From contig JAQUKH010000002.1 in assembly GCA_028719205.1 (NCBI GenBank), forward strand, positions 96,828-160,827: a stretch of DNA of 64,000 nucleotides. Reading direction: 5' to 3'. Made by a program: the position numbers and the translations under genes. This DNA is from a bacterium. Its GTDB lineage: Bacteria; JACRDZ01; JAQUKH01. The notes beneath the pieces were generated by a model, which saw nothing but the letters and a program-made list of their open reading frames with translations, made no database searches and had not been told where the DNA came from. Shown here in pieces: positions 45,312 to 58,780 of the stretch. Position 1 is the stretch's first letter. Each line of letters opens with the position of its first letter.

Positions 45312-46088
45312 ATGAAGGTTGTTATTCTTTGCGGAGGAAAAGGGACAAGAATGAAGGAAGAAACTGAGTTTCGTCCCAAGCCTTTGGTAAATATTGGCGG
45401 GTATCCGATTATTTGGCATATTATGAAGATATACGCGCATTATGGATTTAAAGATTTTGTTCTTTGTCTTGGGTATAAAGGAAATATGATCAAGGAATAT
45501 TTTTTGAATTATGAAGCAATGAATAATGATTTTACCGTTTGTCTGGGCGCAAAAAATAAAATAAAATTTCATAGCAAACACGAAGAACACAATTGGAATG
45601 TAACGTTAGTTGATACCGGTGAAGAAGCAATGACAGGTGCAAGAGTGAAAAAAGTCGAAAAATATATTGATACTGATCTGTTTATGGTAACTTATGGTGA
45701 TGGAGTAGCTGACATTGATATAAGAAAATTGGTTAATTTCCATAATTCACACGGAAAAATCGGGACGATCACCGGAGTTCATCCCTCTTCACGTTTTGGA
45801 GAATTAATTATCAAAGAAAATAAAGTCAGTAAATTTTATGAAAAACCTCAGGTGAGCCAGGGCCTTATAAATGGAGGTTTTTTTGTTTTCAAAAAAGAAA
45901 TTTTTAAATATATTAAAGAAGATGAAAGCTGTCTTTTAGAAAAAGAACCATTAGAAACACTTGCCAAAGAAAGCAACTTAATGGCTTATCTTCATCTTGG
46001 ATTCTGGCAGTGCGTTGATACTTATCGGGAATTAGAGGTATTAAATGATTTATGGAAAACGCCTCATCCTCCATGGAAGGTTTGGTAA
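45312..46088 (+). CDS. rfbF: Glucose-1-phosphate cytidylyltransferase
   Basis: MKVVILCGGKGTRMKEETEFRPKPLVNIGGYPIIWHIMKIY is the canonical RfbF/DdhA N-terminus. Confidence 0.85.
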   Translation: MKVVILCGGKGTRMKEETEFRPKPLVNIGGYPIIWHIMKIYAHYGFKDFVLCLGYKGNMIKEYFLNYEAMNNDFTVCLGAKNKIKFHSKHEEHNWNVTLVDTGEEAMTGARVKKVEKYIDTDLFMVTYGDGVADIDIRKLVNFHNSHGKIGTITGVHPSSRFGELIIKENKVSKFYEKPQVSQGLINGGFFVFKKEIFKYIKEDESCLLEKEPLETLAKESNLMAYLHLGFWQCVDTYRELEVLNDLWKTPHPPWKVW

Positions 46089-46093
46089 AAAAT

Positions 46094-47086
46094 ATGGGAA
46101 GCAGCTTTTGGTTGAAAAAAAAGGTTCTTATTACAGGTTATGAAGGTTTTTTAGGTTCTAATTTAACACAGAATTTATTAAATCAAGGCGCGAAAATATG
46201 GGGCTTGGATATTAAAACCCGCCGAAAAGAAACTATCCTGTCAAAAAAAGAATTAAATAAAATTAAAATAATAAAAGGCAGTGTTGAAAATTTATCGCTT
46301 GTTTCTAAAATTATTAAAGAAAATAAAATTGAAATAGTTTTTCATTTAGCCGCCAGCGCTCTTGTCGGGAATTGTTTAAAAAATCCAGTCGAGGCATTTT
46401 CCACTAATATAGAAGGAACGTGGAATATCCTTGAGTCCTGTAGAAATAACAAACATATTAAAGCTATTATTATTGCTTCCAGTGATAAGGCGTATGGGAG
46501 TCAAAAGAAATTACCTTACCTGGAAAATACCCCGTTAGCAGGAGAACATCCCTATGATGTTTCAAAAAGCTGCGCGGATCTGATTGCTTATGCCTATTAT
46601 CACACATATGATATGCCGGTTGCGGTAACGCGCTGCGGCAACATTTATGGGCCGGGAGATTTTAATTTTTCCAGAATAATCCCCGAAACCGTAAAATGCG
46701 CGCTTTCGGGCAACAAACTTATGATTAGAAGTGACGGGAAGTTTGTACGGGATTATGTTTATGTCGGAGATATTGTCAATGGTTATATAATGCTCGCGGA
46801 ACAATTAGAAAAGAAAGATTTAAGGGGAGAGGCATTTAATTTCAGCGATGAAAATCCCATAAACGTAATAGAATTAGTTAAAAATATCTATAAGCAAGTG
46901 GGCGCGAAAACGAATTATATAATTCTTAACAAAGCAAAATATGAGATAAAGAATCAATATTTGGCATCCGCGAAGGCAAGAAAAATCCTTGGTTGGAAGC
47001 CGGAATACACTTTGAAAGATGGGATCGAGAGAACTATTGATTGGCATAAAAATAATTATGGATATTCAAAAAAATGTCCCTTATGA
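46094..47086 (+). CDS. rfbG: CDP-glucose 4,6-dehydratase
   Basis: KKVLITGYEGFLGSNL, SSDKAYG, YDVSKSC (SDR Yx3K) and overall RfbG/DdhB length. Confidence 0.8.
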   Translation: MGSSFWLKKKVLITGYEGFLGSNLTQNLLNQGAKIWGLDIKTRRKETILSKKELNKIKIIKGSVENLSLVSKIIKENKIEIVFHLAASALVGNCLKNPVEAFSTNIEGTWNILESCRNNKHIKAIIIASSDKAYGSQKKLPYLENTPLAGEHPYDVSKSCADLIAYAYYHTYDMPVAVTRCGNIYGPGDFNFSRIIPETVKCALSGNKLMIRSDGKFVRDYVYVGDIVNGYIMLAEQLEKKDLRGEAFNFSDENPINVIELVKNIYKQVGAKTNYIILNKAKYEIKNQYLASAKARKILGWKPEYTLKDGIERTIDWHKNNYGYSKKCPL

Positions 47087-47583
47087 ATGAAAATAAGAAA
47101 ACAATTGATCTATTGGAATCTTTAGTAAAAGACCCCTCTAAAGGCCTCCCCGAAGAAGTATTCCTTTTTTTAACCAGAATTACCCCCATGGTTAACGTTG
47201 ATTTGCTTATAAAAAATGAACAAAATCATACGCTTCTTACATGGAGAGATGATGCCTTTCACTCCGCCGGCTGGCATGTTCCGGGAGGTATTATAAGATA
47301 TAAAGAAACATTTTCTGACAGAATTAATGCTGTTGCCATGACCGAGCTTGGAGTCCGTGTAAAGTTCAAGAAGGCTCCATTGGTGCTGAATGAAGTTATT
47401 CATCCGACAATAAAAGTCCGGGGCCACTTTATTTCTTTGTTGTATGAGTGCGTATTAATAAGCCCCCTTAATAAAAATCTTGAATTTAAGGGAGGAACTC
47501 CCAAGCCGGGAGAATGGGCGTGGCACAGCAAATGTCCGGACAATATAATCTCAGCCCATGAAATGTATAGGAGTTTTATATGA
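47074..47583 (+). CDS. Nudix hydrolase, GDP-mannose mannosyl hydrolase (WcaH/NudD)-like
   Basis: Collinear with E. coli NudD from memory: TPMVNVDLLIKN vs TPLVSLDFIVEN, and GWHVPGGIIRYKETFSDRINAVAMTELGV vs [30 protein letters not shown]. Confidence 0.6.
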   Translation: MSLMNENKKTIDLLESLVKDPSKGLPEEVFLFLTRITPMVNVDLLIKNEQNHTLLTWRDDAFHSAGWHVPGGIIRYKETFSDRINAVAMTELGVRVKFKKAPLVLNEVIHPTIKVRGHFISLLYECVLISPLNKNLEFKGGTPKPGEWAWHSKCPDNIISAHEMYRSFI

Positions 47584-48491
47584 CGGATAGCGCCATGAAA
47601 ACTGCCATCGTTACCGGTCCTACCAGCCTGGTTGGCTATTGGCTTATTAAAGAATTAATCGATAATAATGTTATTGTTTACGCGCTCTGCCGGAAAAATT
47701 CTAAAAGGCGCAAAAATCTTGATATATTTGATAAATTAAAAATTATAGAACTAGATATTGAAGAAATAGATAAATTACCATTATTAGTTGATAATATAGA
47801 TGTTTTTTATCATCTGGCCTGGGAAGGCGAAAGAAATGATTATGCTGCGCAAAGCAAAAATATTACAAATTCCATCAAAGCAATGGAAACCGCAAAGAAA
47901 GTTGGAGCATATAATTTTATTGTGACCGGTTCTCAGGCAGAATACGGCAGTCAAAATTTTATAGCTACCGAGGAATCTACTCCAAAACCCGATACGGCTT
48001 ATGGAATTTGTAAGTTATCCACTTTTAACATTTTATGTGTGTTAGCTGAAAAAATAAATATTAACTTAATTTGGGCGAGATTATTCAGTGTATATGGATT
48101 ATATGATCACCCAAATAAATTAATTCCGTATATATTAAATTGTTTTAAAAAAAATATTTCACCCGAACTTACTAAAGCTGAGCAATATTGGGATTTTTTG
48201 CATGCAACAGACGCGGCGAAAGCTCTTTATTCAATAAGTAAGATCAAATCCGTAAATATTTATAACATTGCTTACGGCAGTGGTAAGCCGTTAAAGGAAT
48301 ACATTGTTGAAGCCAGAAATTTATGCAATCCCAATGTAACGCTCAAATTCGGAACAGTGCCGGAAAATATAAAAAAAGCCGTATCCTTGAGAGCTGACAT
48401 TAATAAAATAAAAAAAGATACACAATGGGAACCTAAAATTTCATTTGCCGAAGGTATTAAAACGATGTATAATGAAAAAATAAATTTTTAA
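47580..48491 (+). CDS. NAD-dependent epimerase/dehydratase-family reductase (CDP-abequose/paratose synthase-like)
   Basis: TAIVTGPTSLVGYWL Rossmann motif, YGICK (Yx3K). ~300 aa, in a CDP-dideoxyhexose context. Confidence 0.65.
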   Translation: MTDSAMKTAIVTGPTSLVGYWLIKELIDNNVIVYALCRKNSKRRKNLDIFDKLKIIELDIEEIDKLPLLVDNIDVFYHLAWEGERNDYAAQSKNITNSIKAMETAKKVGAYNFIVTGSQAEYGSQNFIATEESTPKPDTAYGICKLSTFNILCVLAEKININLIWARLFSVYGLYDHPNKLIPYILNCFKKNISPELTKAEQYWDFLHATDAAKALYSISKIKSVNIYNIAYGSGKPLKEYIVEARNLCNPNVTLKFGTVPENIKKAVSLRADINKIKKDTQWEPKISFAEGIKTMYNEKINF

Positions 48492-48516
48492 AAAGATCTA
48501 AATAAATATTCCAAAA

Positions 48517-49449
48517 ATGCAAAAACTTATATCTATTTTTACTCCTTGTTATAACGAAGAGGAGAATATCAAATTAATTTATTCACGGGTTAAATCTGTA
48601 ATGAACGGGTTTAATAATTACAGTTATGAACATGTTTTTATTGATAATTGTTCAAAAGACAAAACATTAAATATTTTAAGAGATATTGCTTCAAAAGATA
48701 AAAATGTCAAGATAATAGTGAATGCAAAGAATTTTGGAATAATTCGGTCAGGTTTTCATGGAATAATTCAATGTAAGGGGGACGCTGTAATACCTATAGC
48801 CGCTGACCTGCAGGATCCGCCGGAGATGATCAGAGATTTTATTCTCAAATGGGAAGAAGGTTATAAACTGGTTATTGGGGTGAAAACAAATAGCAAAGAG
48901 AACCCGGTAATGTATTTAATTCGTAAAATATTTTACGATATTATTTCTCGAATAGCTGAGACTGAACAAATCAAAAATTTTAACGGTTATGCTCTTTATG
49001 ACAAATCGTTTATTGAAGTAATTTCTAAAATTGATGATCCTTACCCGTATTTTAGAGGAATGGTTTCTGATTTCGGATTTGATCGTTACGAAATCCCTTA
49101 TAATCAGCCAAAGCGTGAACGCGGAAAATCGAGTTACAGTTTTTATTCTCTTTACGACACCGCTATGCAGGGATTTGTTAATCATTCAAAAGTACCGTTA
49201 CGATTGGCTAGTTTCATCGGTTTTGGCGTAGCTATAATAAGTTTTATGGTCGCAATAGGTTATTTTATATATAAACTATTTTATTGGGACAATTTTCAGG
49301 TTGGTGTCGCGCCTTTGGTGACAGGTATTTTCTTCTTTAGCGGAGTCCAATTGTTTTTTTTGGGAATAATTGGTGAATATATCGGCGCAATTTTTACTCA
49401 AGTTAAGAAGCGTCCATTAGTTATAGAAAAAGAGAGAATTAATTTTTGA
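48517..49449 (+). CDS. GT2 polyisoprenyl-phosphate glycosyltransferase (GtrB-like, two C-terminal TM helices)
   Basis: ISIFTPCYNEEENI, IDNCSKDKT, ADLQDPPE, followed by two TM helices. Confidence 0.8.
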   Translation: MQKLISIFTPCYNEEENIKLIYSRVKSVMNGFNNYSYEHVFIDNCSKDKTLNILRDIASKDKNVKIIVNAKNFGIIRSGFHGIIQCKGDAVIPIAADLQDPPEMIRDFILKWEEGYKLVIGVKTNSKENPVMYLIRKIFYDIISRIAETEQIKNFNGYALYDKSFIEVISKIDDPYPYFRGMVSDFGFDRYEIPYNQPKRERGKSSYSFYSLYDTAMQGFVNHSKVPLRLASFIGFGVAIISFMVAIGYFIYKLFYWDNFQVGVAPLVTGIFFFSGVQLFFLGIIGEYIGAIFTQVKKRPLVIEKERINF

Positions 49450-49451
49450 TT

Positions 49452-50318
49452 CTATCCCTTGCGTCTCAATTTCTTGATTATCGGCATTTCGCGCTGAGTT
49501 ACTTTTTTGATCCCATCTCCCATGGCTATCTCCATTACGCGTATTCCTGAAACCATCTTGATCACTCCTCCCGGCCCGAGTGATGCCGCCTGATCTGATC
49601 CCCACATAGCCCTATCCAAAGTTATATGACGTTCCACTACACAGGCACCCAGAGCTATCACGGATACTGATGTCGGTATACCGGTTTCATGGCCGGAATA
49701 GCCGGTAGGAACCCCATATCGCTGCCGCAAGACGGGAATAACGGACAGGTTCAATTCATCATAGTTAGCCGGATAAGTACTGGTCGCGTGCAGGATAACC
49801 ATATCTTTCTTCCCGAGAACTTCTACCGCGTGATCAATCTGTTCTATGGTGCTCATTCCCGTAGATAAGATAATCGGTTTACCCTTCGCCCTTGTGTATC
49901 TCAGTAGGTCGTCATCGGTCAAACTGGCCGAGGCTATCTTATAACAAGGTACATCAAACTGGTCGATAAAATCGACCGAACCTTCATCCCAGCACGAGGC
50001 GAACCAGGTTATCCCTTTTTCCCGGCAGTACCGGTTGATCTCCTGGTATTCCTCTATCTCAAACTCCAAGCCGTATTTCAGGTCACCATTGGTCTTTCCA
50101 AAAGGACTTTCGCGGGGAGCCGCCAGTTCTTCGGGTTTATATACCACCTCTATGTTTCGCTTCTGAAACTTGACAGCATCGCATCCGGCCAATTTAGCCA
50201 GGTCTATAAGTTTTTTTGCTATATCTATATCACCGTTATGGTTGATGCCGATTTCCGCAATTATATAACATGGATGGCCTTCCCCGATTTTCCTGTTGCC
50301 TATTTGAACCGATATCAT
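49452..50318 (-). CDS. NeuB-family PEP-condensing sugar synthase (N-acetylneuraminate synthase-like TIM barrel, no C-terminal SAF domain)
   Basis: IIAEIGINHNGD, AVKFQK, YKIASA, GYSGHE motifs. 288 aa. Confidence 0.75.
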   Translation of the reverse strand: MISVQIGNRKIGEGHPCYIIAEIGINHNGDIDIAKKLIDLAKLAGCDAVKFQKRNIEVVYKPEELAAPRESPFGKTNGDLKYGLEFEIEEYQEINRYCREKGITWFASCWDEGSVDFIDQFDVPCYKIASASLTDDDLLRYTRAKGKPIILSTGMSTIEQIDHAVEVLGKKDMVILHATSTYPANYDELNLSVIPVLRQRYGVPTGYSGHETGIPTSVSVIALGACVVERHITLDRAMWGSDQAASLGPGGVIKMVSGIRVMEIAMGDGIKKVTQREMPIIKKLRRKG

Positions 50319-50409
50319 TTCCAGTCCTCCCTTTTATTTTTTTTGGCGTTTCATTTCCCGCCGCCTATTATTCAATTATACATCATTTTAACTTTTTAAA
50401 CCTAAATAT

Positions 50410-51459
50410 TTATTTTTTTAAATTTTTTGGATCAAGCTTTTCAATAGGAAATCCGTCAACTTTATCTTCAACAGGGAACAAGCGAAACCAATCGCAATTT
50501 TTACAAAGCCTGTTTTGATGCTTATTGCCGGACAACAGCATTTTCCTAAAATTAAAAAGATCTTCGCCTTCCCAAATTTCTTTTAATGTATGCAATTTAA
50601 CATTGTCTATTCGAGTTGCCCGGGGAGCATCGTGTGTACACATAACGACATCGCCGTTAGAACAGATAACCATTCCAATAAAAGGCCTTGGGCATGTTTT
50701 TAGATCATGAAGGCTTTTATCATAGTCTTCACGCGTTCGTTTTGCGTCTTCAGGATTCGTATAATAAGAACCAATTAAATCCGCATTATTATATTTTGAC
50801 GCGTCAAAAACTTTTTCGAAACCAATTTCGTCTGCAATATCTTTATATAAATTTATAAAAACTTCATTTTCACTGGTATAAGTGTCAAACATTTTAACAA
50901 AAATATATGGTTTTGAACTTCCTTTTTTATCGCGGATCCTTTTTAACGCTGCTATGTTATCCCTGATCTTGTGTATATCAATGCTGTTATTGGTTACACT
51001 TTTATGGTGGTCATTAATCACGGAATAAATGGAAAAACGAATAGCATCTAATTGGTATTCTACAAGTTTTTCGCTTATAGCTTCAGTAAGCAAAGAGCCA
51101 TTGCTAAACATATCCAGACGTTCAGCAATATCCGCATCCTTTGCCATTTTGATCATTTCACACATTTTTGGATGTAAAAAAGGTTCTCCCAGGGCTGTCA
51201 ACCTGAGTAATTTTAATTTTGGGCCGGGCCATGTTCGCAATTCATCAATCATTTTTTTATATAGATCGAAATCCAAATGAATAAATGGCTTCAAATCTTC
51301 CCGATTTTTTTCCTGTCCATGCGCGCAGGGCTTACATTTAAAATTGCAGAAATTTGTAGGCTCAATAAAAATAGAGAAAGGTTTCTTAAGCGGCAGTAAA
51401 TCACGCAATAGCCTTCTGTTTGACTTATTGATTATTGTAAAATCGTTACTTTTTTCCAT
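50410..51459 (-). CDS. Radical SAM enzyme with C-terminal Cys-rich (SPASM/twitch-like) extension
   Basis: CNFKCKPC CxxxCxxC motif. C-terminal CSNGDVVMC...CKNC. Confidence 0.75.
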   Translation of the reverse strand: MEKSNDFTIINKSNRRLLRDLLPLKKPFSIFIEPTNFCNFKCKPCAHGQEKNREDLKPFIHLDFDLYKKMIDELRTWPGPKLKLLRLTALGEPFLHPKMCEMIKMAKDADIAERLDMFSNGSLLTEAISEKLVEYQLDAIRFSIYSVINDHHKSVTNNSIDIHKIRDNIAALKRIRDKKGSSKPYIFVKMFDTYTSENEVFINLYKDIADEIGFEKVFDASKYNNADLIGSYYTNPEDAKRTREDYDKSLHDLKTCPRPFIGMVICSNGDVVMCTHDAPRATRIDNVKLHTLKEIWEGEDLFNFRKMLLSGNKHQNRLCKNCDWFRLFPVEDKVDGFPIEKLDPKNLKK

Positions 51460-51484: not shown

Positions 51485-52549
51485 TTATTTTATAAAATCA
51501 TCTGCTGAAAAAGCCTCTTTCCAGCTTATCGGAAGCGGTTTCCCATAAAATTTAGACATATAATTTTTAATGAAATTCCTGTCCAAACCTGCAAGACAAA
51601 CAGGATTCCGTTTGTGAAAGAACTTGATTTTAAATGACCTCTCAATAATATCCTTAAGAGGTTCTTCAAAAATATTTCCCATGGAAATATGTATAAATCC
51701 GCAGGGTAAAAAATCACCATATTTTGTTATATGGGAATTCTTTATGATGCATGCGCATCCGCCGCGCTCTTCGCCGTATGAAGGCAGCATATCCCATTGA
51801 AGCATTGGATATTCTTTTTTCAATTCAATCAAATAGTTAACGTCCTGTTCATCAAGTAAAACTTCTTCCTTGCCTTCCCATCTTCCTACCGCCTTTGCTA
51901 TCATAATATCAAAGTTAAATAAATTTTTTTGACAAAATTCCGCGATTTGTTTCGTAGCGGGAGTTCGACAAGTCTGGTGCGAGATTACTGTTTGAATATT
52001 GACCTGTAAACCCGCTTCTCTTGCGATAAAAAGGGCCTCAATCGCTTTTTTATATCCTTCATTTTTGCCCCTTGTCTGTTGATATATTTTTTCATCGATG
52101 CTGTCCAGGCTGATCTTGACTTTATCCAAACCGATTTTTTTTAAGTGCTCCGCGCGGCTTTTGTCTAAAAGCAAGCCATTTGTACTCATCGCGAGGTGAA
52201 ACTTCTCAGGATTCAAGGCGGAAATAACATCATCTATATCAGGGAAAGTCAGCGGTTCGCCGCCGGAAATTGTGAATTGAGCGAGGCCCATTTCATCTGC
52301 CTGACGGGAAAGATCTTTTAGTGATTCTATTGTTAAGACTTTTTTCTTTTTCGCCAGGCTAAGATTTGAGCAATGCGCGCAGTGCATATTGCATCTATAA
52401 TCATAACACAAATCTATCATTGTGACTGATTCGCCCCGGGCTACTTTTTCAGGAAATCTCATGATTTTTTCAAAAACAAGAGGTTTTTCCCGTTTTAGTT
52501 TTTCCCGCCTTAAATTTTCAACTTCTTTTCTGCTTTTTTCAATTATCAT
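51485..52549 (-). CDS. Radical SAM enzyme with C-terminal Cys-rich extension
   Basis: CNMHCAHC motif, GGEPL. C-terminal GGCACII...CGF. Confidence 0.75.
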   Translation of the reverse strand: MIIEKSRKEVENLRREKLKREKPLVFEKIMRFPEKVARGESVTMIDLCYDYRCNMHCAHCSNLSLAKKKKVLTIESLKDLSRQADEMGLAQFTISGGEPLTFPDIDDVISALNPEKFHLAMSTNGLLLDKSRAEHLKKIGLDKVKISLDSIDEKIYQQTRGKNEGYKKAIEALFIAREAGLQVNIQTVISHQTCRTPATKQIAEFCQKNLFNFDIMIAKAVGRWEGKEEVLLDEQDVNYLIELKKEYPMLQWDMLPSYGEERGGCACIIKNSHITKYGDFLPCGFIHISMGNIFEEPLKDIIERSFKIKFFHKRNPVCLAGLDRNFIKNYMSKFYGKPLPISWKEAFSADDFIK

Positions 52550-52580: not shown

Positions 52581-53702
52581 TCATATTGCAAAGCATACAG
52601 TCTCTCTCAAATCATCACTATAATGCCGTAAATAAATTTTATAATCAGGAACTAACGTTTTTAAATAAAATGGTATCTTCCAAAAATGGTCCGGAGAATG
52701 ATAGACGCATATGGCAAGTTTAGGTTTATATTTTTTTATTATTTTTTCAGCTCCTATCAGCGCCTCCATCTCCGCTCCTTCAATATCCATTTTGATATAA
52801 GTCGGAATTATATCTTTCAAATGTTCAGAAAGAGCGACGACATGCCCGGTTATCCCGGATGAATTATTAATGCATGTGGATGAAGTATTTGAATGATATT
52901 TAATCGTCATATTCTTGTTAAAAAGGCCTAAGTTATTGCAAATGATTTTCCCCTGGATATCCGGCTTCAATTTCTGAATATTTTTTTGCAATCTTAAATA
53001 ATTGTTGTAATCTAGTTCATAGGAAATAATTTTATTAAATTTATTATTTGTTTTTATTAAAAAATCTTGAATTGTGTCTCCGTCATATGTCCCGACATCA
53101 ACAAATACTTCATTATCTGTAAGATTAAGTATATTTTCCGGGAAATACTGAATTCCATCTTTTTTAATACCAACTTTAGTATCGTAAGAAGAAATCGGGC
53201 TGTACCAGTTTTTTAATATAGTAATAAAGCTGTCAATTGATTCTTTATCCGATAAAATATCAGCTAAATTGCACATATTCTCTTTTAAGCTATTGGCGTC
53301 GCTTTTTAATAAGTAATCCTTTATCCCTAATAATAGAAATTTTGGGAATATAATATAATTATTGAAATTAAGTGTTTTTAATTGCTTAATAATTTCTTCG
53401 TAATAACTTGAGGTAATAATAATTAATAGATTACCCTTATAATTATCAAGCTGAAGGGGGGCTTTGCAGGGAATGTTCAGACAAATTTCTTTGTCCCATA
53501 AATCAGGTTTATTATCGAAAAAGAAATCTATTTTAATATTTTTTGAATTCAGGAAAAGCGCCAGATCAATTCCTCTGATATTCGCGCCGAATAAGCATAA
53601 ATGTTCAGCCTTATTTAATCGGGCATACAATTCTTTCACTTCACTGCCTGATGACTTGTTATATAAATCTATCAAACTGCAAATTTCTTGTTTATAATCC
53701 AT
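52581..53702 (-). CDS. FkbM-family methyltransferase with N-terminal Rossmann-like domain
   Basis: VDVGTYDGD and C-terminal YIKMDIEGAEMEAL as in the FkbM family. Confidence 0.7.
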   Translation of the reverse strand: MDYKQEICSLIDLYNKSSGSEVKELYARLNKAEHLCLFGANIRGIDLALFLNSKNIKIDFFFDNKPDLWDKEICLNIPCKAPLQLDNYKGNLLIIITSSYYEEIIKQLKTLNFNNYIIFPKFLLLGIKDYLLKSDANSLKENMCNLADILSDKESIDSFITILKNWYSPISSYDTKVGIKKDGIQYFPENILNLTDNEVFVDVGTYDGDTIQDFLIKTNNKFNKIISYELDYNNYLRLQKNIQKLKPDIQGKIICNNLGLFNKNMTIKYHSNTSSTCINNSSGITGHVVALSEHLKDIIPTYIKMDIEGAEMEALIGAEKIIKKYKPKLAICVYHSPDHFWKIPFYLKTLVPDYKIYLRHYSDDLRETVCFAI

Positions 53703-53713: not shown

Positions 53714-54712
53714 CTAAAATCCGATCTTTTTCTTTATTTCAAGGGCTATTTTTAGGACATCGATTCCTGCATTTAAAGGAATCATGGAATCCTTTACACC
53801 ATTTATCAGCATAATAAAATCCTTTATTTCATCAATAAACATATCATTTCTATCAAAATTTTCAGATATATTTATAACAGTAGGAGCAATTTCTTTATCT
53901 CTATATAAAATTGTCAAATTTTTTGCGTAATAGTCCCAAAACATCTTACCCTTGGTGCCGATTATTTCGAATGATCTTGTTGGAGGATATTGCCAATAAT
54001 CGAGGTGCAGCGAAACAATAAAATTATTCTTATATTCTAGTATAGATTTTACCATATCTTCAGCATCACCGTCAAGAGGTGTTATTTTCCCGCCGATAGA
54101 ATAAATATTTTCCGGCATACCAAAGAACCAGTAAAGGTAATCAATATCGTGACTGAAACATAAGACCGCCCCGCCTCCGCCGCTTTTATAAGCAGCGTAT
54201 GTAGTCCGGTAATCTTCCCATGGATGCCAATCCTCAATATTTTCTCCCATAACTATATTTGCTGATATCGGTTTTCCGATCTCTCCGCTTTCCACCATGG
54301 TTTTCATTTTTTTCAGCAAGGGATGCCATCGTAAATTATACCCGATCATGATTTTTAGCTTTTTTTGTTCAGCAAGGGATTTTAACTCATCAAGGCCATC
54401 CAAATTGTTTGAAAGGGGTTTTTCTATGAAAAGATGTTTACCTGATCTTGCGGCCCGCAATGAAATATCAATGTGCCTGCTGTTTGGGTTTGTCACAAAA
54501 ACGGCATCGGGATTAAAATCATTGATCGCTTCTTCAAAATTATAATAAGATTTGACCTTTAGGCCGGATTTTGCCTGTTCCTGAAAAAATTTTTCTACAA
54601 ATGGAGTATTTGTTCTGCTAAATCGAAATGCCGCCACCTCATGTCCAAGAGATTTGAGGTTCTTATAATGTCTTTGTCCTATTGATCCGATTCCACAAAT
54701 TAAGAATTTCAT
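53714..54712 (-). CDS. Gfo/Idh/MocA-family NAD(P)-dependent oxidoreductase
   Basis: MKFLICGIGSIGQRH N-terminal Rossmann. EKP motif. Confidence 0.8.
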   Translation of the reverse strand: MKFLICGIGSIGQRHYKNLKSLGHEVAAFRFSRTNTPFVEKFFQEQAKSGLKVKSYYNFEEAINDFNPDAVFVTNPNSRHIDISLRAARSGKHLFIEKPLSNNLDGLDELKSLAEQKKLKIMIGYNLRWHPLLKKMKTMVESGEIGKPISANIVMGENIEDWHPWEDYRTTYAAYKSGGGGAVLCFSHDIDYLYWFFGMPENIYSIGGKITPLDGDAEDMVKSILEYKNNFIVSLHLDYWQYPPTRSFEIIGTKGKMFWDYYAKNLTILYRDKEIAPTVINISENFDRNDMFIDEIKDFIMLINGVKDSMIPLNAGIDVLKIALEIKKKIGF

Positions 54713-55458
54713 TATAAAGCTGTTCTTCCGCCGTCGATTACTAACGAAGCGCCTGTCATATAAGAAGATGCCTCAGACAGCAAAAAATGTATTACTCCAT
54801 TGTATTCATCTTTTTTTGCCATTCTTCCCAGCATATTCAAATTGCTGTTTCTCTTAACAAAATCTTCAGGCTGATTGTTAAACATACCTCCCGGCACGGC
54901 GGCATTTACCCTGATATTATATCTGCCAAGATATGACGCCCACGACCTCATTAATCCCAAAATGCCGGTTTTTGAAGTGACATAAGCTATATCCTTAAAT
55001 TTACCCTGGTCATAAATGCTGTTATTAGGAGCGATCATAGCAAGATCTGAGGACACATAAATAATAGAACCGCTGCGTTGTTTCATCATATGAGGTGCTG
55101 CAGCCTGAGTAATAATATGAGCTGCCGTCAGATTAACTTCTAACTCTTTCTTCCAAAGTTCCAACGGGAAATCCTCATAAGGTTTCCAGAAGTCTTTCGC
55201 GGTTTCACTTCCCGGAGAAGCATTAATAGCAGCTACATTTACAAGGCCATCGATCCGGCCGTATTTTTTGATTATTTCCTCAACATTTTTTATTACTTCC
55301 TTTTGATTTGTGATATCAACAGGATTTTCACCCGTTTTATCAAAATTAACCGTGGTAGCCCCGCATTGATCTAAATATTTTTTAAACTGGGAACCTAAAA
55401 AACCATTTCCGCCTGTAATAATTATTACTTTGTCAGCGATCGAAAAAATATTTTTCAT
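54712..55458 (-). CDS. SDR-family oxidoreductase
   Basis: ITGGNGFLG. Yx3K (YVTSK). Confidence 0.8.
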   Translation of the reverse strand: MKNIFSIADKVIIITGGNGFLGSQFKKYLDQCGATTVNFDKTGENPVDITNQKEVIKNVEEIIKKYGRIDGLVNVAAINASPGSETAKDFWKPYEDFPLELWKKELEVNLTAAHIITQAAAPHMMKQRSGSIIYVSSDLAMIAPNNSIYDQGKFKDIAYVTSKTGILGLMRSWASYLGRYNIRVNAAVPGGMFNNQPEDFVKRNSNLNMLGRMAKKDEYNGVIHFLLSEASSYMTGASLVIDGGRTAL

Positions 55459-55461
55459 AAT

Positions 55462-57279
55462 TTAGTTTTCTTCTTCTATCAAGGGGATATACATATTGGA
55501 CAAAAGCTCATCTCGATCCAAAAAAGGCCATTGATCTTCCAATGGTTTGGATACCATTGTTCCGTCTTTCTTTCGTTTTGAAGAAACCTTTGGGGATACC
55601 TTAAAATCAGGTATGACAAGAACATCACAGATGACCGGCCCGTCATAATCGAATACATCTTTGATTTTTGTTTCCAGTTCACTCGTATCATTAATTCTGA
55701 CTGCCTTTATTTTATAAGCTTCCGCGATAGAAATGATATCAGGCAATGTCAATCCTGAAGACGGGCCATTGCCTAAAAAATTACCATTAAAATGAGTTTC
55801 TTGCATTGTCCTGATTGATGAGTATCCGTTATTGTTCATTACAAAAATTTTAACAGGCAAATTTAATCTATGGAGTGTTTCCAGTTCCTGGATGTTCAAC
55901 TGGATGCCTCCATCACCCGCGATACAGATGGTTCTTTTTCCGCCATTCGCGATTGACGCGCTTATGCTTAAAGGAAGTTCAAAACCCATTGGGCCTAATC
56001 CATGATTAGTAAGGAACTTCTGATTTTTTTTGATCTTAAATGCCTGGAATGTATATTCCGCGGTGGTTCCGGCGCAACATGGAGAAATTATATCATCACT
56101 ATCAGCAATATGAGATATTAAATCTATTAATTGGTAAGGATTGACCAGGCCGGATTTTGTAAAATAATCTTTTCTGATAATAGGATATTTATTACGCCAT
56201 TCTTTTATTTTATCCTTCCATTTTGATATATCCCTGATCTTGATTTTATCAGATCTCTCTAATAATTCTTCCATTATCAATTTTGCGTCCGCGGCGATCT
56301 TTAAATCAACTTTAAAATTAAGTTTCTTTATTTCATTAGGGTCAATATCTATAACGATTTTTTTCGCGGCTCTTGCAAAAGATTTTGTATCAAATCCTGT
56401 TTGCGTGAAATCCAGCCTTGAACCGATCGATATCAAGAGATCAGAATTTTGAACCGCAAAATTCGCGGCACGTTCGCCCAATAACCCGCCTCTTCCCGCG
56501 TACAAGGGATGTTCTTCAGGAAATAAATCCATTGCTTTCCACGTTGGAATTACAGGGATACCTAATTTTATTATTAAATCAAAAAATATTTTTTTTGATT
56601 TTGAAATTTTTATCCCGTCTCCCGCGATTATTACAGGCCTTTCAGAATTATTTAACAATTTAATAATTTTATTTATTTTGTTATCGAATATTGAAATATC
56701 GGCCTTCTTTCCATTTAATTCCAATGGATCAAAACTTTTTAGATCCGTTTCTTCGATGATGCTTCCTTGTACATCCAATGGGATATCAAGCCATACAGGC
56801 CCGGGCCTTCCGCTCAATGCCAGATATAAAGCTTTTTCCAAATGGTATTTAATCATATCCGGCTCCATTACAGTAACAGAATATTTTGTAATTGATTGAA
56901 CCATTGATATGATATCAACTTCCTGGATCCCTAATTGGCGTATTTTTTTGCCTTTCATTATATCCGGCCTTTTAACCTGGCCCGAAAAAAACATACAAGG
57001 GATCGAGTCGATCCATGCCGCGCAAACTCCGGTGATCGCATTAGTGCCTCCGGGGCCGGTCGTAACCAAACCGACTCCGATATGCTCTGTATGCATCGCA
57101 TACGCTTCGGCAGCAATGGCAACAGATTGTTCATGAAGCATGCAAACAGGTTCAATATCTTTACATCTGGCAAGAGAATCAACTAAATGCATCGCGCCCC
57201 CGCCCGGCAAATAAAAAACATGCTTTACTTTCTGCCTGGTAATGAATTTTATAATATAATCTGATAACTTAATTTTCAT
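55462..57279 (-). CDS. Thiamine-diphosphate-dependent enzyme of the acetolactate-synthase large-subunit family (YerE-like candidate)
   Basis: N-terminal Pyr domain (FYLPGGGAMHL), central domain, C-terminal PP domain (GDGG...NN TPP-binding motif). Confidence 0.8.
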   Translation of the reverse strand: MKIKLSDYIIKFITRQKVKHVFYLPGGGAMHLVDSLARCKDIEPVCMLHEQSVAIAAEAYAMHTEHIGVGLVTTGPGGTNAITGVCAAWIDSIPCMFFSGQVKRPDIMKGKKIRQLGIQEVDIISMVQSITKYSVTVMEPDMIKYHLEKALYLALSGRPGPVWLDIPLDVQGSIIEETDLKSFDPLELNGKKADISIFDNKINKIIKLLNNSERPVIIAGDGIKISKSKKIFFDLIIKLGIPVIPTWKAMDLFPEEHPLYAGRGGLLGERAANFAVQNSDLLISIGSRLDFTQTGFDTKSFARAAKKIVIDIDPNEIKKLNFKVDLKIAADAKLIMEELLERSDKIKIRDISKWKDKIKEWRNKYPIIRKDYFTKSGLVNPYQLIDLISHIADSDDIISPCCAGTTAEYTFQAFKIKKNQKFLTNHGLGPMGFELPLSISASIANGGKRTICIAGDGGIQLNIQELETLHRLNLPVKIFVMNNNGYSSIRTMQETHFNGNFLGNGPSSGLTLPDIISIAEAYKIKAVRINDTSELETKIKDVFDYDGPVICDVLVIPDFKVSPKVSSKRKKDGTMVSKPLEDQWPFLDRDELLSNMYIPLIEEEN

Positions 57280-57466
57280 TTTTGCTTTTCATCTTTCTAT
57301 TTCAATATTTTTATAATATTAAAAGATTATAATACAATAAAAAATAGTTGTCAATAAAGTATTGTTGGTGACAGTACATGTATGTTATAATTGAAAAACC
57401 ATTAATATTTAGAGATATAATTTTATCGGAAATATTTTCGCTTATTAAGGAAATCATAGAGCAAAA

Positions 57467-58780
57467 ATGGGAACTAAATTACGAAAAGAAATATTATCAA
57501 AGGTTAAAGAATTTTATAAAATAAAAGATAAGGAAAAATTTGTCCCGGGTAAAACTTTAATTAATTACGCGGGTCGCGTATATGATGAAAAAGAATTAAT
57601 TAATTTAATTGACGCTTCATTGGATTTCTGGCTGACAACCGGCAGATACGCACTGGAATTTGAAAAGAAACTTGCCTATTTTCTCAAAATAAAATATTGT
57701 TTATTAACAAACTCCGGTTCATCAGCCAATCTTTTAGCGGTTTCCGCTTTAACCTCGCCTCTGTTGAAAGAGAAGCGGTTAAAACCGGGAGATGAGGTTA
57801 TTACTACGGCTTGCGGTTTCCCGACAACTCTTAACCCGATATTACAGAATAATTTAGTTCCTGTTTTTATTGATATAAATTTGGGTACATATGATATTCA
57901 GGTTGATAAAATTGAGAAAGCGATCACTAAAAAAACAAAGGCGATTTTTGTTGCCCATACACTTGGTAATCCATTTAATTTAGATAAAATATTAAAACTG
58001 GCTGATAAATACGGTTTATGGCTTCTCGAGGATAATTGTGATGCTCTGGGCTCAAGGTATAAGGGAAAATATACGGGAACATTCGGGCATATTTCTACCG
58101 CCAGTTTTTATCCCGCGCATCATATTACAATGGGGGAGGGTGGGGCAGTTTTAACAAATGACCCGTTGCTGAAAAAAATAATTCTTTCTTTTCGTGATTG
58201 GGGAAGGGATTGTTTCTGTGAACCCGGGCACGATAATACCTGCGGGAAAAGATTCTCTCAGCAATTTGGGGAATTGCCGCCTGGTTATGATCATAAATAT
58301 GTTTATTCGCATATAGGTTATAATTTGAAAGTAACTGATATGCAGGCGGCTATAGGATGCGCCCAATTAGAAAAGCTGCCGGGATTTATTGAAGCACGTA
58401 AAAATAATTTCACGGCTTTGTATAATCACTTGAGAAAATATAATAAATTTTTAGTTCTTCCGGAAGCAACAGAAAATTCTGAACCGAGCTGGTTCGGGTT
58501 TCCTATTCTTGTTAAACAGGGTGTGCCGTTCAGCCGTTCGGATATTGTTAATTATCTTGAAAAAAATAGAATAGCTACAAGGATGCTTTTCGGCGGCAAC
58601 CTGACAAAGCAGCCTGCTTACCTTAAATCGAAATATCGCGTTTCCGGCGGGTTGAAAAATACAGATTTAGTGATGAATAACCTGTTTTGGATCGGGGTGT
58701 ATCCGGGTTTAACTGAAGAAAAAATAGATTACATTGAAAAAATATTTAAACAATTTTTTAATCTACAGGAAAAACGGTAA
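57467..58780 (+). CDS. rfbH: CDP-6-deoxy-D-xylo-4-hexulose-3-dehydrase (E1, RfbH/DdhC), DegT family
   Basis: 437 aa. The usual Lys is replaced by His in the DegT active-site block (FYPAHHITMGEGG). Cys cluster RDWGRDCFCEPGHDNTCGKRF typical of the E1 [2Fe-2S] site. Confidence 0.8.
   Translation: MGTKLRKEILSKVKEFYKIKDKEKFVPGKTLINYAGRVYDEKELINLIDASLDFWLTTGRYALEFEKKLAYFLKIKYCLLTNSGSSANLLAVSALTSPLLKEKRLKPGDEVITTACGFPTTLNPILQNNLVPVFIDINLGTYDIQVDKIEKAITKKTKAIFVAHTLGNPFNLDKILKLADKYGLWLLEDNCDALGSRYKGKYTGTFGHISTASFYPAHHITMGEGGAVLTNDPLLKKIILSFRDWGRDCFCEPGHDNTCGKRFSQQFGELPPGYDHKYVYSHIGYNLKVTDMQAAIGCAQLEKLPGFIEARKNNFTALYNHLRKYNKFLVLPEATENSEPSWFGFPILVKQGVPFSRSDIVNYLEKNRIATRMLFGGNLTKQPAYLKSKYRVSGGLKNTDLVMNNLFWIGVYPGLTEEKIDYIEKIFKQFFNLQEKR

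Follow-up and report, generated by a model that had tools for sequence, protein, structure and literature searches.

Branched 3,6-dideoxyhexoses and the extent of the locus

Yersiniose A of Yersinia pseudotuberculosis O:VI is made by AscA/B/C/D together with YerE and YerF, and its C2 branch comes from pyruvate. For erwiniose, caryophyllose and gastriose, an aldolase-made 4-hydroxy-2-keto acid is used by a YerE-like enzyme and a YerF-like reductase; these long-branch enzymes act on CDP-4-keto-3,6-dideoxyglucose, the same acceptor that we propose here (Steitz et al. 2022, PMC9306805). With the scheme for these sugars and the R. palustris 'ropiose' (PMC9306805), the locus analysed here shares the acceptor-sugar genes leading from CDP-glucose to the 4-keto-3,6-dideoxy sugar via E1, a YerE-like ThDP enzyme with an adjacent NAD(P)H reductase, SAM methyltransferase(s) and a dedicated enzyme proposed to make the 4-hydroxy-2-keto acid donor. 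In the long-branch pathways the donor comes from a class II pyruvate aldolase (BphI- or HpcH-type). Here it would come from a PEP-dependent NeuB-family synthase, which in relatives of the cluster has a GmhA-like isomerase and a KdsC-like phosphatase beside it. The ThDP enzymes of our cluster type are also a clade to themselves, with about 34% identity to JanthE, and, unlike the long-branch pathways, the locus has no E3, but predicted radical SAM and B12-radical-SAM tailoring and predicted export by a polyprenyl-phosphate GT2 plus GT-C.

Common to the yersiniose A pathway and our cluster are RfbF, the 4,6-dehydratase, E1, a carboligase of the ThDP flavoenzyme family and the reductase. In contrast, Yersinia encodes an E3 (AscD), and its pathway has no NeuB, methyltransferase or radical SAM genes. 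The initial annotation had described a pathway similar to, but more elaborate than, that of yersiniose, which we consider the right wording. More than 200 YerE-like clusters have reportedly been mined by Krug et al. in 2024, and this type may already be among them.

Within the window, that is, the whole analysed stretch of 64,000 nucleotides, all genes named by the initial annotation are intact ORFs at or close to their given coordinates. The cluster exceeds the span 45312-58780 given there: related glycosyltransferase, methyltransferase and B12-radical-SAM genes begin at about 39.9 kb and continue until the window ends at 64 kb. The start of that span, 45312, is codon 6 of the intact rfbF ORF (45297-46088). 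A GT2 gene (39918..40634) is the probable left edge of the glycan cluster; its neighbours to the left are bacillithiol genes. The ThDP, SDR, Gfo/Idh/MocA and FkbM genes previously listed for the opposite strand were found by Pfam, all on the minus strand; overlooked in that list was a NeuB-like synthase (49452-50318). The features are:

39918..40634, (-): GT2 glycosyltransferase, 238 aa (Pfam Glycos_transf_2, 124 bits)
40853..42283, (-): B12-binding radical SAM enzyme, 476 aa (Pfam B12-binding and Radical_SAM; CxxxCxxC at residue 217)
42216..42974, (-): GT2, polyprenyl-phosphate sugar synthase-like, 252 aa (Pfam GT2)
43090..44025, (+): class I SAM methyltransferase, 311 aa (Pfam Methyltransf_23/11/12/25)
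44025..45245, (+): GT87-like polytopic membrane protein, 406 aa (Pfam GT87, 29 bits versus cut-off 25)
45297..46088, (+): RfbF, glucose-1-phosphate cytidylyltransferase, product CDP-glucose (TIGR02623 equivalog)
46052..47086, (+): NDP-glucose 4,6-dehydratase ('RfbG'), SDR-type (CDP_4_6_dhtase, PDB matches, motifs)
47074..47583, (+): Nudix-fold protein, 169 aa, degenerate Nudix box (Pfam NUDIX, 21.7 bits)
47580..48491, (+): extended SDR, 303 aa (Pfam Epimerase, 101 bits)
48517..49449, (+): GT2 polyprenyl-phosphate glycosyltransferase, PgfS/ArnC/GtrB-like (NCBIfam PgfS 193, ArnC 129 bits)
49452..50318, (-): short NeuB-family PEP-dependent synthase, 288 aa, no SAF domain (Pfam NeuB, 259 bits)
50410..51459, (-): radical SAM/SPASM enzyme, 349 aa (Pfam Radical_SAM and SPASM; CNFKCKPC at residue 38)
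51485..52549, (-): radical SAM enzyme, MoaA-like core, partial SPASM, 354 aa (Radical_SAM 93 bits, SPASM 24 bits)
52581..53702, (-): FkbM-family SAM methyltransferase, 373 aa (Pfam Methyltransf_21, TIGR01444)
53714..54712, (-): Gfo/Idh/MocA NAD(P) oxidoreductase, 332 aa (Pfam GFO_IDH_MocA N- and C-terminal domains)
54712..55458, (-): classical SDR, 248 aa, directly downstream of the ThDP gene (adh_short_C2, 123 bits; YxxxK at residue 159)
55462..57279, (-): YerE-like ThDP-dependent carboligase, 605 aa (three TPP_enzyme domains; JanthE best PDB match)
57326..57354, (-): putative sigma-70 consensus promoter, TTGACA-17-TATAAT (pattern match only)
57467..58780, (+): E1/RfbH, CDP-6-deoxy-L-threo-D-glycero-4-hexulose 3-dehydrase, PMP and [2Fe-2S] (NF011936, PDB 3bcx)
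58780..61071, (+): YfhO-like GT-C membrane glycosyltransferase, 763 aa (Pfam YfhO, 77 bits versus cut-off 28.5)
61058..62479, (-): B12-binding radical SAM enzyme, 473 aa (Pfam B12-binding and Radical_SAM; CxxxCxxC at residue 210)
62480..63958, (-): B12-binding radical SAM enzyme, 492 aa (NF038361, 344 bits; CxxxCxxC at residue 212)

The putative promoter is the sole 12/12 match within 44.8-61.3 kb. It precedes the ThDP operon, 47 nt upstream of the ThDP start, within the divergent intergenic region.

The acceptor-sugar arm

The rfbF identity was borne out by the curated TIGR02623 model (346 bits versus a cut-off of 300). For 'RfbG', which has a Rossmann motif at residue 29 and a YxxxK motif, the assignment as NDP-glucose 4,6-dehydratase stands, but homology does not establish its CDP specificity: the CDP_4_6_dhtase score of 230 bits stays below the cut-off of 278 (dTDP-glucose dehydratase, 199 bits). 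Its best solved relative is the dTDP-glucose 4,6-dehydratase 6bi4 (171 bits), ahead of the CDP-glucose 4,6-dehydratase 1rkx (144 bits). Both the rfbG name and the presumed use of CDP are therefore owed to the gene context and not to the family assignment, and the score below the CDP-specific cut-off counts against the product proposed below.

The DegT-family protein was confirmed as E1/RfbH. It scores 736 bits against NF011936 RfbH (cut-off 423) and 570 bits against Yersinia E1 (3bcx), and both AHHITMGEGG and CFCEPGHDNTCGKRF are literally present. In the alignment, His218 coincides with His220 of E1, replacing the PLP lysine, and C191/C249/C251/C259 match the complete [2Fe-2S] motif of E1 (C193-X57-C251-X1-C253-X7-C261). 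The active-site histidine and the complete iron-sulfur motif rule out an ordinary aminotransferase. The observation that the window holds no E3 gene was also upheld: Pfam revealed no Fer2 + FAD_binding_6 + NAD_binding_1 architecture among the ORFs put through (33 of the larger non-nested ones of 1-40.7 kb and the 20 cluster genes), and no ORF of the window or of 86 related loci contained an E3-type motif combination. The E1-type enzyme SpnQ works without an E3, being served by general ferredoxin or flavodoxin reductase pairs (PMC8987622).

Among 48 well-flanked related loci (at least 8 kb on each side, more than 15 phyla), homologues of E1/RfbH were present in 38, of RfbF in 36 and of the dehydratase in 36. 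E1 is missing nearby in the other 10, so the acceptor sugar is not universal, which counts against the long-branched product proposed below.

Carboligase, NeuB-like synthase and accessory genes

The ThDP enzyme, which on sequence grounds we propose to attach the branch, has a canonical GDG-X24-NN motif (455-483) and the activating Glu50 within LHEQ. Its top NCBIfam match by name is acolac_lg (TIGR00118), but with 412 versus 538 bits, and it remains below every NCBIfam AHAS cut-off. The best solved relative is JanthE (8rph, 410 bits; true AHAS at most 276), a crystallised YerE-like carboligase that accepts ketones (PMC12188165). A neighbour-joining tree with JanthE and PpYerE as characterised YerE-like references placed the three in one clade in all 100 bootstraps, and E. 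coli IlvB and IlvI outside it; identity to JanthE is only 34%, however. A search for an IlvH/IlvN-like small subunit gave nothing, neither in the window, the neighbourhood of the gene included, nor in any of 90 related loci. The enzyme is YerE-like and not IlvB, as the initial annotation had suspected. GTDB species genomes contain at least 558 relatives, and in the JGI annotation homologues are labelled acetolactate synthase.

The NeuB-like synthase scores below both the NeuB and PseI equivalog cut-offs. Two of its histidines align with conserved histidines of SpsE (1vli), which we take to be the metal ligands of NeuB enzymes. Its homologues are the most conserved neighbour of the ThDP gene (47 of 48 well-flanked loci), at most 1.6 kb away in 65 of 70 loci, and ThDP subclade and NeuB type track each other across relatives. 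The usual order is (GmhA-like isomerase)-NeuB-(KdsC-like phosphatase)-ThDP enzyme beside rfbF/G/H, RfbF-RfbG-RfbH-NeuB-ThDP being a fixed order in most loci. Between NeuB and ThDP gene lies either a KdsC-family phosphatase (136 bits versus cut-off 107), whose stop in locus L002 overlaps the ThDP start, or, where NeuB is of a second, cupin-fused type, an HAD-IA-like protein (34 and 26 loci, respectively, by clustering at 1e-5; 23 and 30 in a stricter census). The GmhA-like isomerase (201 bits versus cut-off 209; 14 loci) is mostly directly upstream of NeuB.

This order is also that of KDO and KDN modules (KdsD-KdsA-KdsC-KdsB; Bacteroides KDN-9-P synthase and phosphatase), where a sugar-phosphate isomerase, a PEP-dependent synthase and a KdsC-family phosphatase yield a free 3-deoxy-2-ulosonic acid, as is predicted for the relatives. 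Here, in contrast, the synthase is of the NeuB family, not KdsA, and a ThDP enzyme takes the place of CMP-activation (KdsB or NeuA). We found no KdsB-type CMP-ulosonate synthetase in the window or 90 loci, which argues against activation of the NeuB product as a separate sugar. The window keeps the synthase only: the phosphatase and isomerase are absent, and NeuB, at the operon's far end, does not adjoin the ThDP gene. Both points count against a long branch. Of the yersiniose-like pathway originally suggested, a YerE-like enzyme acting on a keto-dideoxy sugar remains supported, but the conservation of NeuB beside the ThDP gene makes a two-carbon branch unlikely and a long, ulosonic-acid-derived branch likely.

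The classical SDR, a candidate YerF-like reductase of the branch carbonyl, occurs in 18 of 48 related loci, mostly right behind the ThDP gene; the Gfo/Idh/MocA protein, whose nearest structures are inositol dehydrogenases, occurs with it downstream of that gene. The FkbM methyltransferase (found in 23 of 48 loci) is probably responsible for O-methylation, and the class I methyltransferase is distantly related (24-28% identity) to a C-methyltransferase-like family of 38 related loci. The radical SAM/SPASM enzyme is found in 9 of 81 loci. Its 354-aa neighbour, with CNMHCAHC at residue 53, is found in 20 of 81 together with the Nudix-fold protein, which accompanies it in NeuB-ThDP clusters. The family of the latter (65-76% identity across phyla) matches the GDP-mannose mannosyl hydrolase GDPMH by profile (1rya/2i8t, E=1e-6), and its AlphaFold model shows a Nudix fold (pLDDT 78). 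B12-radical-SAM paralogues occur in 13 of 81 loci; the enzyme at 40853..42283 is a candidate C-methylase or other tailoring enzyme, and that at 62480..63958 is related to P- and C-methyltransferases, its NF038361 score being below the cut-off of 575. The extended SDR (4 of 81 loci), which MoeE5 and GDP-6-deoxy-4-hexulose reductase match weakly in the PDB, is a candidate NDP-sugar epimerase or ketoreductase.

GT2 plus YfhO-type GT-C is shared with three-component extracytoplasmic glycosylation systems (S. mutans PgfS/PgfM1, B. subtilis CsbB/YfhO, Gtr, ArnC/ArnT). The PgfS/ArnC-like GT2 has a homologue in 26 of 48 loci, and relatives of the cluster also carry a GtrA flippase, as these systems do, often right behind that homologue. 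In contrast to these systems, the window has no GtrA, and all matches, including PgfS and ArnC, are below equivalog cut-offs; the same holds for the weak PpgS and dolichyl-P hexose transferase matches of the GT2 at 42216..42974. The YfhO-like protein, whose start overlaps the rfbH stop, is covered by the Pfam match in its C-terminal part only, and its PgfM1 match is weak. The GT87-like protein is a weak candidate for a GT-C transferase using a lipid-linked sugar. While three-component systems use UDP-sugars, the donor here would be a CDP-sugar; we know of no precedent for its use by an ArnC-like GT2, which again counts against the proposed product.

Proposed pathway and alternatives

We consider it moderately probable that the cluster makes a CDP-activated 3,6-dideoxyhexose with a long C-4 side chain, which then decorates an extracytoplasmic glycan or protein. 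All chemistry in this scheme is predicted from homology and synteny. CDP-glucose, the product expected of RfbF from its family membership, would be converted by the 4,6-dehydratase, clear in class and presumably CDP-specific, to CDP-4-keto-6-deoxyglucose. E1/RfbH, whose identity is firm, would remove the 3-OH to give CDP-4-keto-3,6-dideoxyglucose; since no E3 is encoded nearby, a general ferredoxin or flavodoxin system would supply its electrons. In parallel, the NeuB-type synthase may join PEP and an aldose, or the phosphate of an aldose, in a condensation that yields the branch donor, a 3-deoxy-2-ulosonic (alpha-keto) acid instead of the pyruvate of yersiniose; the isomerase and phosphatase that complete this module in relatives follow KDO-pathway logic. 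The ThDP enzyme would decarboxylate the keto acid and add the acyl carbanion to the C-4 ketone, so that C-4 becomes a tertiary alcohol bearing a long polyhydroxy-acyl branch, whose length would be set by the aldose substrate of NeuB. Reduction of the branch carbonyl by the adjacent SDR would yield a long polyhydroxyalkyl, caryophyllose- or gastriose-like branch, with the 2'-deoxy-polyhydroxy pattern of these two sugars. Further tailoring may involve the Gfo/Idh/MocA protein, the FkbM and class I methyltransferases, two radical SAM/SPASM and three B12-radical-SAM enzymes. Finally, the PgfS/ArnC-like GT2 could load the sugar onto polyprenyl phosphate and a GT-C enzyme (YfhO-like or GT87-like) transfer it to the final acceptor outside the membrane.

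A plain yersiniose-type route, in which a pyruvate-derived C2 acetyl branch is placed on CDP-4-keto-3,6-dideoxyglucose and reduced by the SDR while the NeuB product enters the same glycan separately, seems unlikely. YpYerE uses pyruvate and JanthE accepts it too (PMC12247030), and the separated NeuB gene of the window, with neither phosphatase nor isomerase, would fit. However, ErwE, a long-branch enzyme that has been characterised, does not accept pyruvate (PMC9306805), no CMP-ulosonate synthetase was found in the window or the 90 loci to activate a separate NeuB product, and a near-obligate NeuB-ThDP adjacency over more than 15 phyla would be odd between independent pathways. We see likewise only a small chance that the cluster makes two sugars, one abequose- or paratose-type by 4-keto reduction through the 303-aa SDR, a possible 4-ketoreductase in the rfbF operon, and another by a NeuB-ThDP pathway in which the ulosonic acid is decarboxylated to a 2-deoxy-aldose or ligated to a different acceptor. 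In its favour are this SDR and the loci that have both NeuB and the ThDP gene but no E1; but RfbF, RfbG and RfbH accompany the pair in most loci, the SDR is rare, and the ThDP enzyme falls within the YerE-like clade of ketone acceptors and not among simple decarboxylases.

A nonulosonic acid pathway of the legionaminic or pseudaminic type is highly improbable. Nucleotidyltransferase, 4,6-dehydratase, DegT protein (as aminotransferase) and NeuB would act in series with a Nudix hydrolase, and these gene types do match superficially: the dehydratase matches LegB (163 bits), the DegT protein PseC and LegC weakly, the synthase NeuB/PseI, and the relatives of the Nudix protein include an NDP-sugar hydrolase. 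The E1 hallmarks of the DegT protein largely refute this pathway; furthermore, NeuB lacks the SAF domain and clears neither equivalog cut-off, and we saw no N-acetyltransferase, hydrolysing 2-epimerase or CMP-NulO synthetase. That the ThDP enzyme acts as an acetolactate synthase, biosynthetic or catabolic, and is present in a glycan locus by chance has a next to negligible probability: the names given by NCBIfam and JGI favour it, but it is refuted by the tree position and the lack of a small subunit in the window and 90 loci, and the scores below all AHAS cut-offs and an invariant glycan-gene context also oppose it.

The cluster is real and most likely builds an unusual cell-surface sugar with a long carbon side-branch. 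Its family comprises hundreds of similar but unstudied clusters from bacteria and archaea not yet cultured, and in this family the side-branch appears to be supplied by a sialic-acid-synthase-like enzyme.

Gene content and layout of the cluster

All genes that the initial annotation had placed at 45312-58780 were found there, but the feature is larger, beginning near 39.9 kb and reaching the window end. Three transcription units of closely packed ORFs make up the region.

Transcription units of the region and the promoter-like match between two of them
45297-49449, plus strand: unit 1, with rfbF, a 4,6-dehydratase gene and the genes for a 169-aa Nudix-fold protein, a 303-aa extended SDR and a GT2
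57279 down to 49452, minus strand: unit 2, with the genes for the ThDP enzyme, a classical SDR, a Gfo/Idh/MocA oxidoreductase, an FkbM methyltransferase, two radical SAM/SPASM enzymes and a NeuB-like synthase
57467-61071, plus strand: unit 3, with rfbH and the gene for a YfhO-like membrane protein
57326-57354, minus strand: perfect match to the sigma-70 consensus (TTGACA-17-TATAAT), a pattern match only

Within the minus-strand unit, from the ThDP enzyme gene to the NeuB-like gene, the gaps between genes measure -1 to 91 nt, and on the plus strand the start of the YfhO-like gene overlaps the stop of rfbH. Together, rfbF, the dehydratase gene and rfbH are located inside 12 kb of the window. The sole true intergenic space of the region (57280-57466) contains the TTGACA-17-TATAAT match, which faces the ThDP operon, is located 47 nt upstream of the ThDP start and is the only 12/12 match across the 16.5 kb scanned. 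Total counts in the promoter and terminator scan were not above those in shuffled controls. Related genes flank the three units and encode GT2s, a class I methyltransferase, a GT87-like membrane protein and three B12-radical-SAM enzymes.

Several accessory proteins were analysed further. PDB searches with the two SDRs, the Gfo/Idh/MocA enzyme and one radical SAM enzyme returned generic relatives only. The GT2 scored 193 bits against PgfS (cut-off 500) and 129 bits against ArnC, and the YfhO Pfam match exceeded its cut-off, but covered the C-terminal part only. For the Nudix protein, PDB profile search, AlphaFold model and Foldseek pointed to a Nudix fold, with GDP-mannose mannosyl hydrolase as the closest relative, and yielded no specific function; its canonical REUxEE box is degenerate. 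Members of this Nudix family (window 47074-47583; loci L087, L089 and L090) are 65-76% identical across phyla including Patescibacteria, far above their neighbours, and accompany a MoaA-like radical SAM/SPASM enzyme within clusters of NeuB and ThDP enzyme genes. A search seeded with the Nudix protein returned the same kind of cluster, for example a Patescibacteria locus with four B12-radical-SAM genes.

Other parts of the window carry gene groups of separate interest. Just left of the glycan cluster, three bacillithiol-type genes (34799-36564 and 38493-39917) encode a BshA-like GT4, a BshB-like PIG-L deacetylase and BshC (288 bits to the BshC Rossmann-like domain), which suggests that the organism makes bacillithiol or a related thiol. 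In a 582-aa ORF (36733-38481, plus strand), a complete LytB/IspH domain (299 bits) is joined to a UbiA prenyltransferase domain (55 bits) at the C-terminus; such a fusion would couple the final isoprenoid-precursor step to a prenyltransferase. The polyamine operon at 21790-25198 comprises genes for AdoMet decarboxylase, two paralogous spermidine/spermine synthases and an Orn/Arg/DAP-type decarboxylase, followed by a flavin-reductase-domain gene, and its two aminopropyltransferases suggest that the polyamine produced is longer or branched. Between an MFS transporter gene and smc, a Bro-N domain protein is encoded beside a TIR-domain protein (10071-12159), and this pair may represent a small mobile or defence-related insertion. 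Finally, two paralogous PBS-lyase-type HEAT-repeat proteins (2462-3523 and 7081-8106) are encoded on either side of the genes for a CBS-PAS-GGDEF diguanylate cyclase and an ABC1/UbiB-type kinase.

The CDP-sugar arm and the ThDP enzyme

The assignments of rfbF and rfbH were borne out by equivalog models, with 346 bits for RfbF against TIGR02623 (cut-off 300) and 736 bits for the DegT-family protein against the RfbH model NF011936 (cut-off 423). The latter also scored 570 bits against Yersinia E1 (3bcx), and both motifs quoted in the initial annotation were found in it verbatim. His218, within AHHITMGEGG, aligns with E1 His220 and replaces the PLP-binding lysine, as had been claimed. C191, C249, C251 and C259 form the [2Fe-2S] motif C-X57-C-X1-C-X7-C with exact spacing and align with E1 C193, C251, C253 and C261. 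An active-site histidine together with a four-cysteine motif separates E1 and SpnQ from aminotransferases (PMC8987622). With His218 and the complete four-cysteine motif, the DegT protein is not an ordinary aminotransferase with an active-site lysine.

The product of the gene labelled rfbG is clearly a 4,6-dehydratase-type extended SDR, but it missed the CDP-specific equivalog TIGR02622 (230 versus 278 bits), and its best structural match is a dTDP-glucose dehydratase (171 bits, versus 144 bits for CDP-glucose dehydratase). We infer its CDP specificity from the presence of RfbF and E1 in the cluster.

No E3 gene had been visible in the initial annotation, and this observation held. Pfam analysis of the window ORFs (33 larger non-nested ORFs of 1-40.7 kb plus 20 cluster genes) revealed no Fer2 plus FNR-type architecture, and a screen of the window and 86 related loci for the plant-type 2Fe-2S motif combined with RxY[ST] and G[GTS]GxxP returned no candidate ORF. 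In the window and these loci (L001-L086), E1/RfbH homologues occur frequently, but an AscD/DdhD-type E3 was found in none. E1 lacking a dedicated E3 seems to be usual for clusters of this family and not a gap peculiar to one window. For SpnQ, a dedicated E3 partner is dispensable, since a general ferredoxin/flavodoxin system reduces the enzyme (PMC8987622), and E1 would be reduced through a general ferredoxin or flavodoxin system in the same way. With E3 consistently absent, these clusters provide a natural test case for the reduction of E1-type 3-dehydrases in anaerobes.

The ThDP enzyme (55462-57279, minus strand, 605 aa) possesses the TPP_enzyme_N, M and C domains, the cofactor motif GDG-X24-NN at residues 455-483 and the activating Glu50 in LHEQ. 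Its best solved relative is, by a wide margin, JanthE (8rph, 410 bits); 5ahk, which we take to be PpYerE, came second (287 bits), and true AHAS structures reached at most 276 bits. Sequence identity was 33.8% to JanthE, 33.3% to PpYerE, 30.4% to IlvI and 28.1% to IlvB. JanthE is a YerE-like enzyme that joins keto acids to ketones (PMC12188165). In a neighbour-joining tree of the window protein, 15 relatives, JanthE, PpYerE and E. coli IlvI and IlvB, rooted with E. coli Gcl, the window protein, the 15 relatives, JanthE and PpYerE formed a single clade in all 100 bootstraps; IlvI and IlvB stood apart as a pair (97/100). The JanthE and PpYerE sequences in this tree were copied from printed alignments, and comparison with YerE proper is indirect, via these two proteins, with YpYerE, ErwE, MMAR_2332 and YerF outside it.

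The alternative that the protein is a biosynthetic acetolactate synthase is ruled out by model cut-offs, tree and the absence of a small subunit. It did score 412 bits against TIGR00118, but the cut-off is 538, every NCBIfam AHAS model failed and the PRK AHAS models remained far under all cut-offs. The ThDP gene is flanked by the SDR gene and rfbH, not by ilvH or ilvN, and a tblastn search of the window and 90 related loci with E. coli IlvH and IlvN detected no small subunit. Since the enzyme groups apart from acetolactate synthases, has no adjacent small subunit and is accompanied by a genuine E1, the proposed YerE-like identity stands. The ThDP enzyme is predicted to add a decarboxylated 2-keto acid to a ketone, giving a tertiary alcohol. 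Genes for a suitable acceptor pathway, rfbF, the dehydratase gene and rfbH, accompany it in the window, and all three do so in 33 of 48 well-flanked relatives.

Conserved neighbourhood of the NeuB-like and ThDP enzyme genes

When GTDB was scanned with one genome for each species, at least 558 relatives of the ThDP enzyme were found, the best 80 of which are 45-73% identical to it. They occur in Acidobacteriota, Chloroflexota, Omnitrophota, Verrucomicrobiota, Planctomycetota, Bacillota, Bacteroidota, Elusimicrobiota, Margulisiibacteriota, Desulfobacterota and other bacteria, and among archaea in Altiarchaeota, Woesearchaeota and one more uncultured archaeon. The cluster family as a whole is spread over bacteria of more than 15 phyla and occurs also in Patescibacteria and in several lineages of archaea. 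By its Rho sequence, the source organism of the window is close only to unclassified bacterial MAGs (96-97%), whereas identity to named phyla is about 78% at most. For synteny analysis, all window proteins were searched against the related loci (81 non-redundant), 48 of which are well-flanked, with 8 kb or more of sequence to either side of the ThDP gene.

Window genes with homologues in the 48 well-flanked related loci
NeuB-like synthase: 47
E1 (RfbH): 38
RfbF: 36
Dehydratase: 36
RfbF, dehydratase and E1 together: 33
PgfS-like GT2: 26
FkbM: 23
Classical SDR: 18

The commonest gene order among relatives is RfbF-RfbG-RfbH-NeuB-x-ThDP, where x is a variable gene, and the distance between the NeuB and ThDP genes was at most 1.6 kb in 65 of 70 loci. 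As 10 of the 48 well-flanked relatives have no E1 nearby, the acceptor sugar is not universal. Unbiased clustering of all ORFs of 84 loci, with a linkage stricter than that of the 1e-5 clustering, additionally revealed a xylose-isomerase-like TIM-barrel protein after the ThDP gene in 11 loci, GtrA next to GT2 in 10 and Wzx-like flippases in 8; no GtrA-type flippase was found in the window.

The NeuB-like synthase (49452-50318, minus strand), encoded at the distal end of the ThDP operon, comprises 288 aa, matches the Pfam NeuB TIM barrel with 259 bits and stops after the barrel, without a C-terminal SAF domain. The histidines in its YSGHET and VERHIT motifs align with those of SpsE and are, by the N. 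meningitidis NeuB structure, presumably metal ligands. It scored below the equivalogs for Neu5Ac synthase (258 versus 400 bits) and pseudaminic acid synthase (208 versus 340 bits). An assignment of the cluster to a nonulosonic-acid pathway is rejected, because the DegT protein is E1 and a CMP-synthetase is absent: no KdsB-type CMP-ulosonate synthetase was found in the window or in 90 loci.

Gene x between NeuB and ThDP takes two forms. The first encodes a KdsC-family phosphatase (TIGR01670, 136 bits versus a cut-off of 107), detected in 34 loci at 1e-5 clustering and in 23 in the stricter unbiased clustering; in locus L002, its stop overlaps the ThDP start. The second encodes a HAD-IA-like protein (26 loci at 1e-5 clustering, 30 in the unbiased clustering), and the loci concerned carry a second NeuB type with a fused C-terminal cupin domain, which may be the sugar-phosphate isomerase of this version of the module. 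This second type (L004-L006, L008-L013, L087, L089 and others) is about 505 aa long and about 28% identical to the window NeuB, and the HAD-IA-like protein behind the fusion has 190 aa. In the ThDP tree, the two NeuB types fall into separate subclades, so that NeuB and the ThDP enzyme are inherited together.

A GmhA-like sugar-phosphate isomerase (TIGR00441, 201 bits versus a cut-off of 209) was found in 14 loci by unbiased clustering (L037, L049, L057, L059, L061, L064, L065, L078, L083, L085 and four more). In most of these, from Acidobacteriota and some other lineages, the gene is located directly upstream of NeuB-KdsC-ThDP. As GmhA is of the sedoheptulose-7-phosphate isomerase type, this hints that the branch donor could derive from a heptose phosphate. 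Using tblastn with every ORF located between NeuB and the ThDP gene in relatives, we detected no phosphatase or isomerase partner of NeuB in the window. The window NeuB is 72% identical to that of L002, a locus with a complete module. The Nudix protein as a substitute for the phosphatase is unsupported, since it co-occurs with a HAD phosphatase in other loci.

A proposed route to long-branched sugars

NeuB-family synthases yield a 3-deoxy-2-keto acid bearing a 4-hydroxyl from PEP and an aldose, and the enzyme encoded here would make such a compound from these substrates. In erwiniose, caryophyllose and gastriose, which are long-branched, three components act on CDP-4-keto-3,6-dideoxyglucose: an aldolase makes a 4-hydroxy-2-keto acid, a YerE-like enzyme decarboxylates and ligates it and a YerF-like reductase follows; the YerE-like ErwE rejects pyruvate (Steitz et al. 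2022, PMC9306805). Since NeuB makes the same class of compound as these aldolase donors, and the series of isomerase, NeuB, phosphatase and ThDP genes is conserved, the NeuB product would serve as branch donor and the ThDP enzyme would link it to the CDP-sugar. In relatives, the succession of isomerase, NeuB and KdsC-like phosphatase copies the KDO pathway (KdsD, KdsA, KdsC), but where the latter proceeds to CMP activation by KdsB, the relatives have the predicted ThDP ligation.

The suggestion of a yersiniose-like branched-sugar pathway is supported, but whereas yersiniose has a two-carbon branch, the branch predicted here is probably long and NeuB-derived. The analysis establishes the identities of RfbF and E1, the enzyme classes, the position of the ThDP enzyme in the tree and the synteny counts, whereas substrates, products and step order are inferred, as follows. 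The product would be a sugar with a 2'-deoxy-polyhydroxyalkyl chain at C-4, of the caryophyllose/gastriose type, with a length set by the aldose. Should the GmhA-like isomerase have retained its specificity for heptoses, a branch of as many as nine carbons would be possible, in a sugar of about fifteen carbons altogether. A natural candidate for the YerF-like reduction would be the SDR encoded after the ThDP enzyme, and tailoring may involve the Gfo/Idh/MocA enzyme, FkbM, the class I methyltransferase, the two SPASM radical SAM and the three B12-radical-SAM enzymes. The PgfS/ArnC-like GT2 and the YfhO-like or GT87-like GT-C proteins would provide polyprenyl-phosphate delivery to an extracytoplasmic acceptor.

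Branched higher sugars are rare and known in Yersinia, Pectobacterium, Mycobacterium marinum and Burkholderia, where they affect antigenicity and host interaction. Literature text searches, with Krug et al. 2024 and Lanza et al. 2024 (JanthE) outside their scope, returned no connection between NeuB, ThDP enzymes and branched sugars. According to the mention of Krug et al. 2024 in PMC12247030, more than 200 YerE-like clusters were reportedly mined there, and the NeuB-linked type may be among them.

More broadly, the clusters might belong to a widespread class of branched monosaccharides of very large size that has so far escaped notice, a tentative reading to which we give slightly less than an even chance. 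It combines a ulosonic-acid side chain from a NeuB module, a YerE-like graft onto a CDP-4-keto-3,6-dideoxyhexose, E1 without E3 and anaerobic radical SAM tailoring. A decarboxylated ulosonic acid of KDO, KDN or heptose origin would serve as the side chain, the ThDP graft enzymes would form a distinct YerE-like clade and the synthase module would consist of isomerase, synthase and phosphatase. If true, two modules known from textbooks would be newly paired here, namely synthesis of the KDO/sialic-acid type and ThDP ligation of the YerE type. For biocatalysis, it would provide a big and diverse pool of ThDP carboligases predicted to take keto acids and ketone acceptors that are sugar-like and highly functionalised; reactions of this type are actively sought for chiral tertiary alcohols. 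A family of such sugars would then exist on abundant uncultured lineages of soil, sediment and gut, among them Acidobacteriota, Chloroflexota, Omnitrophota, Verrucomicrobiota, Patescibacteria and archaea.
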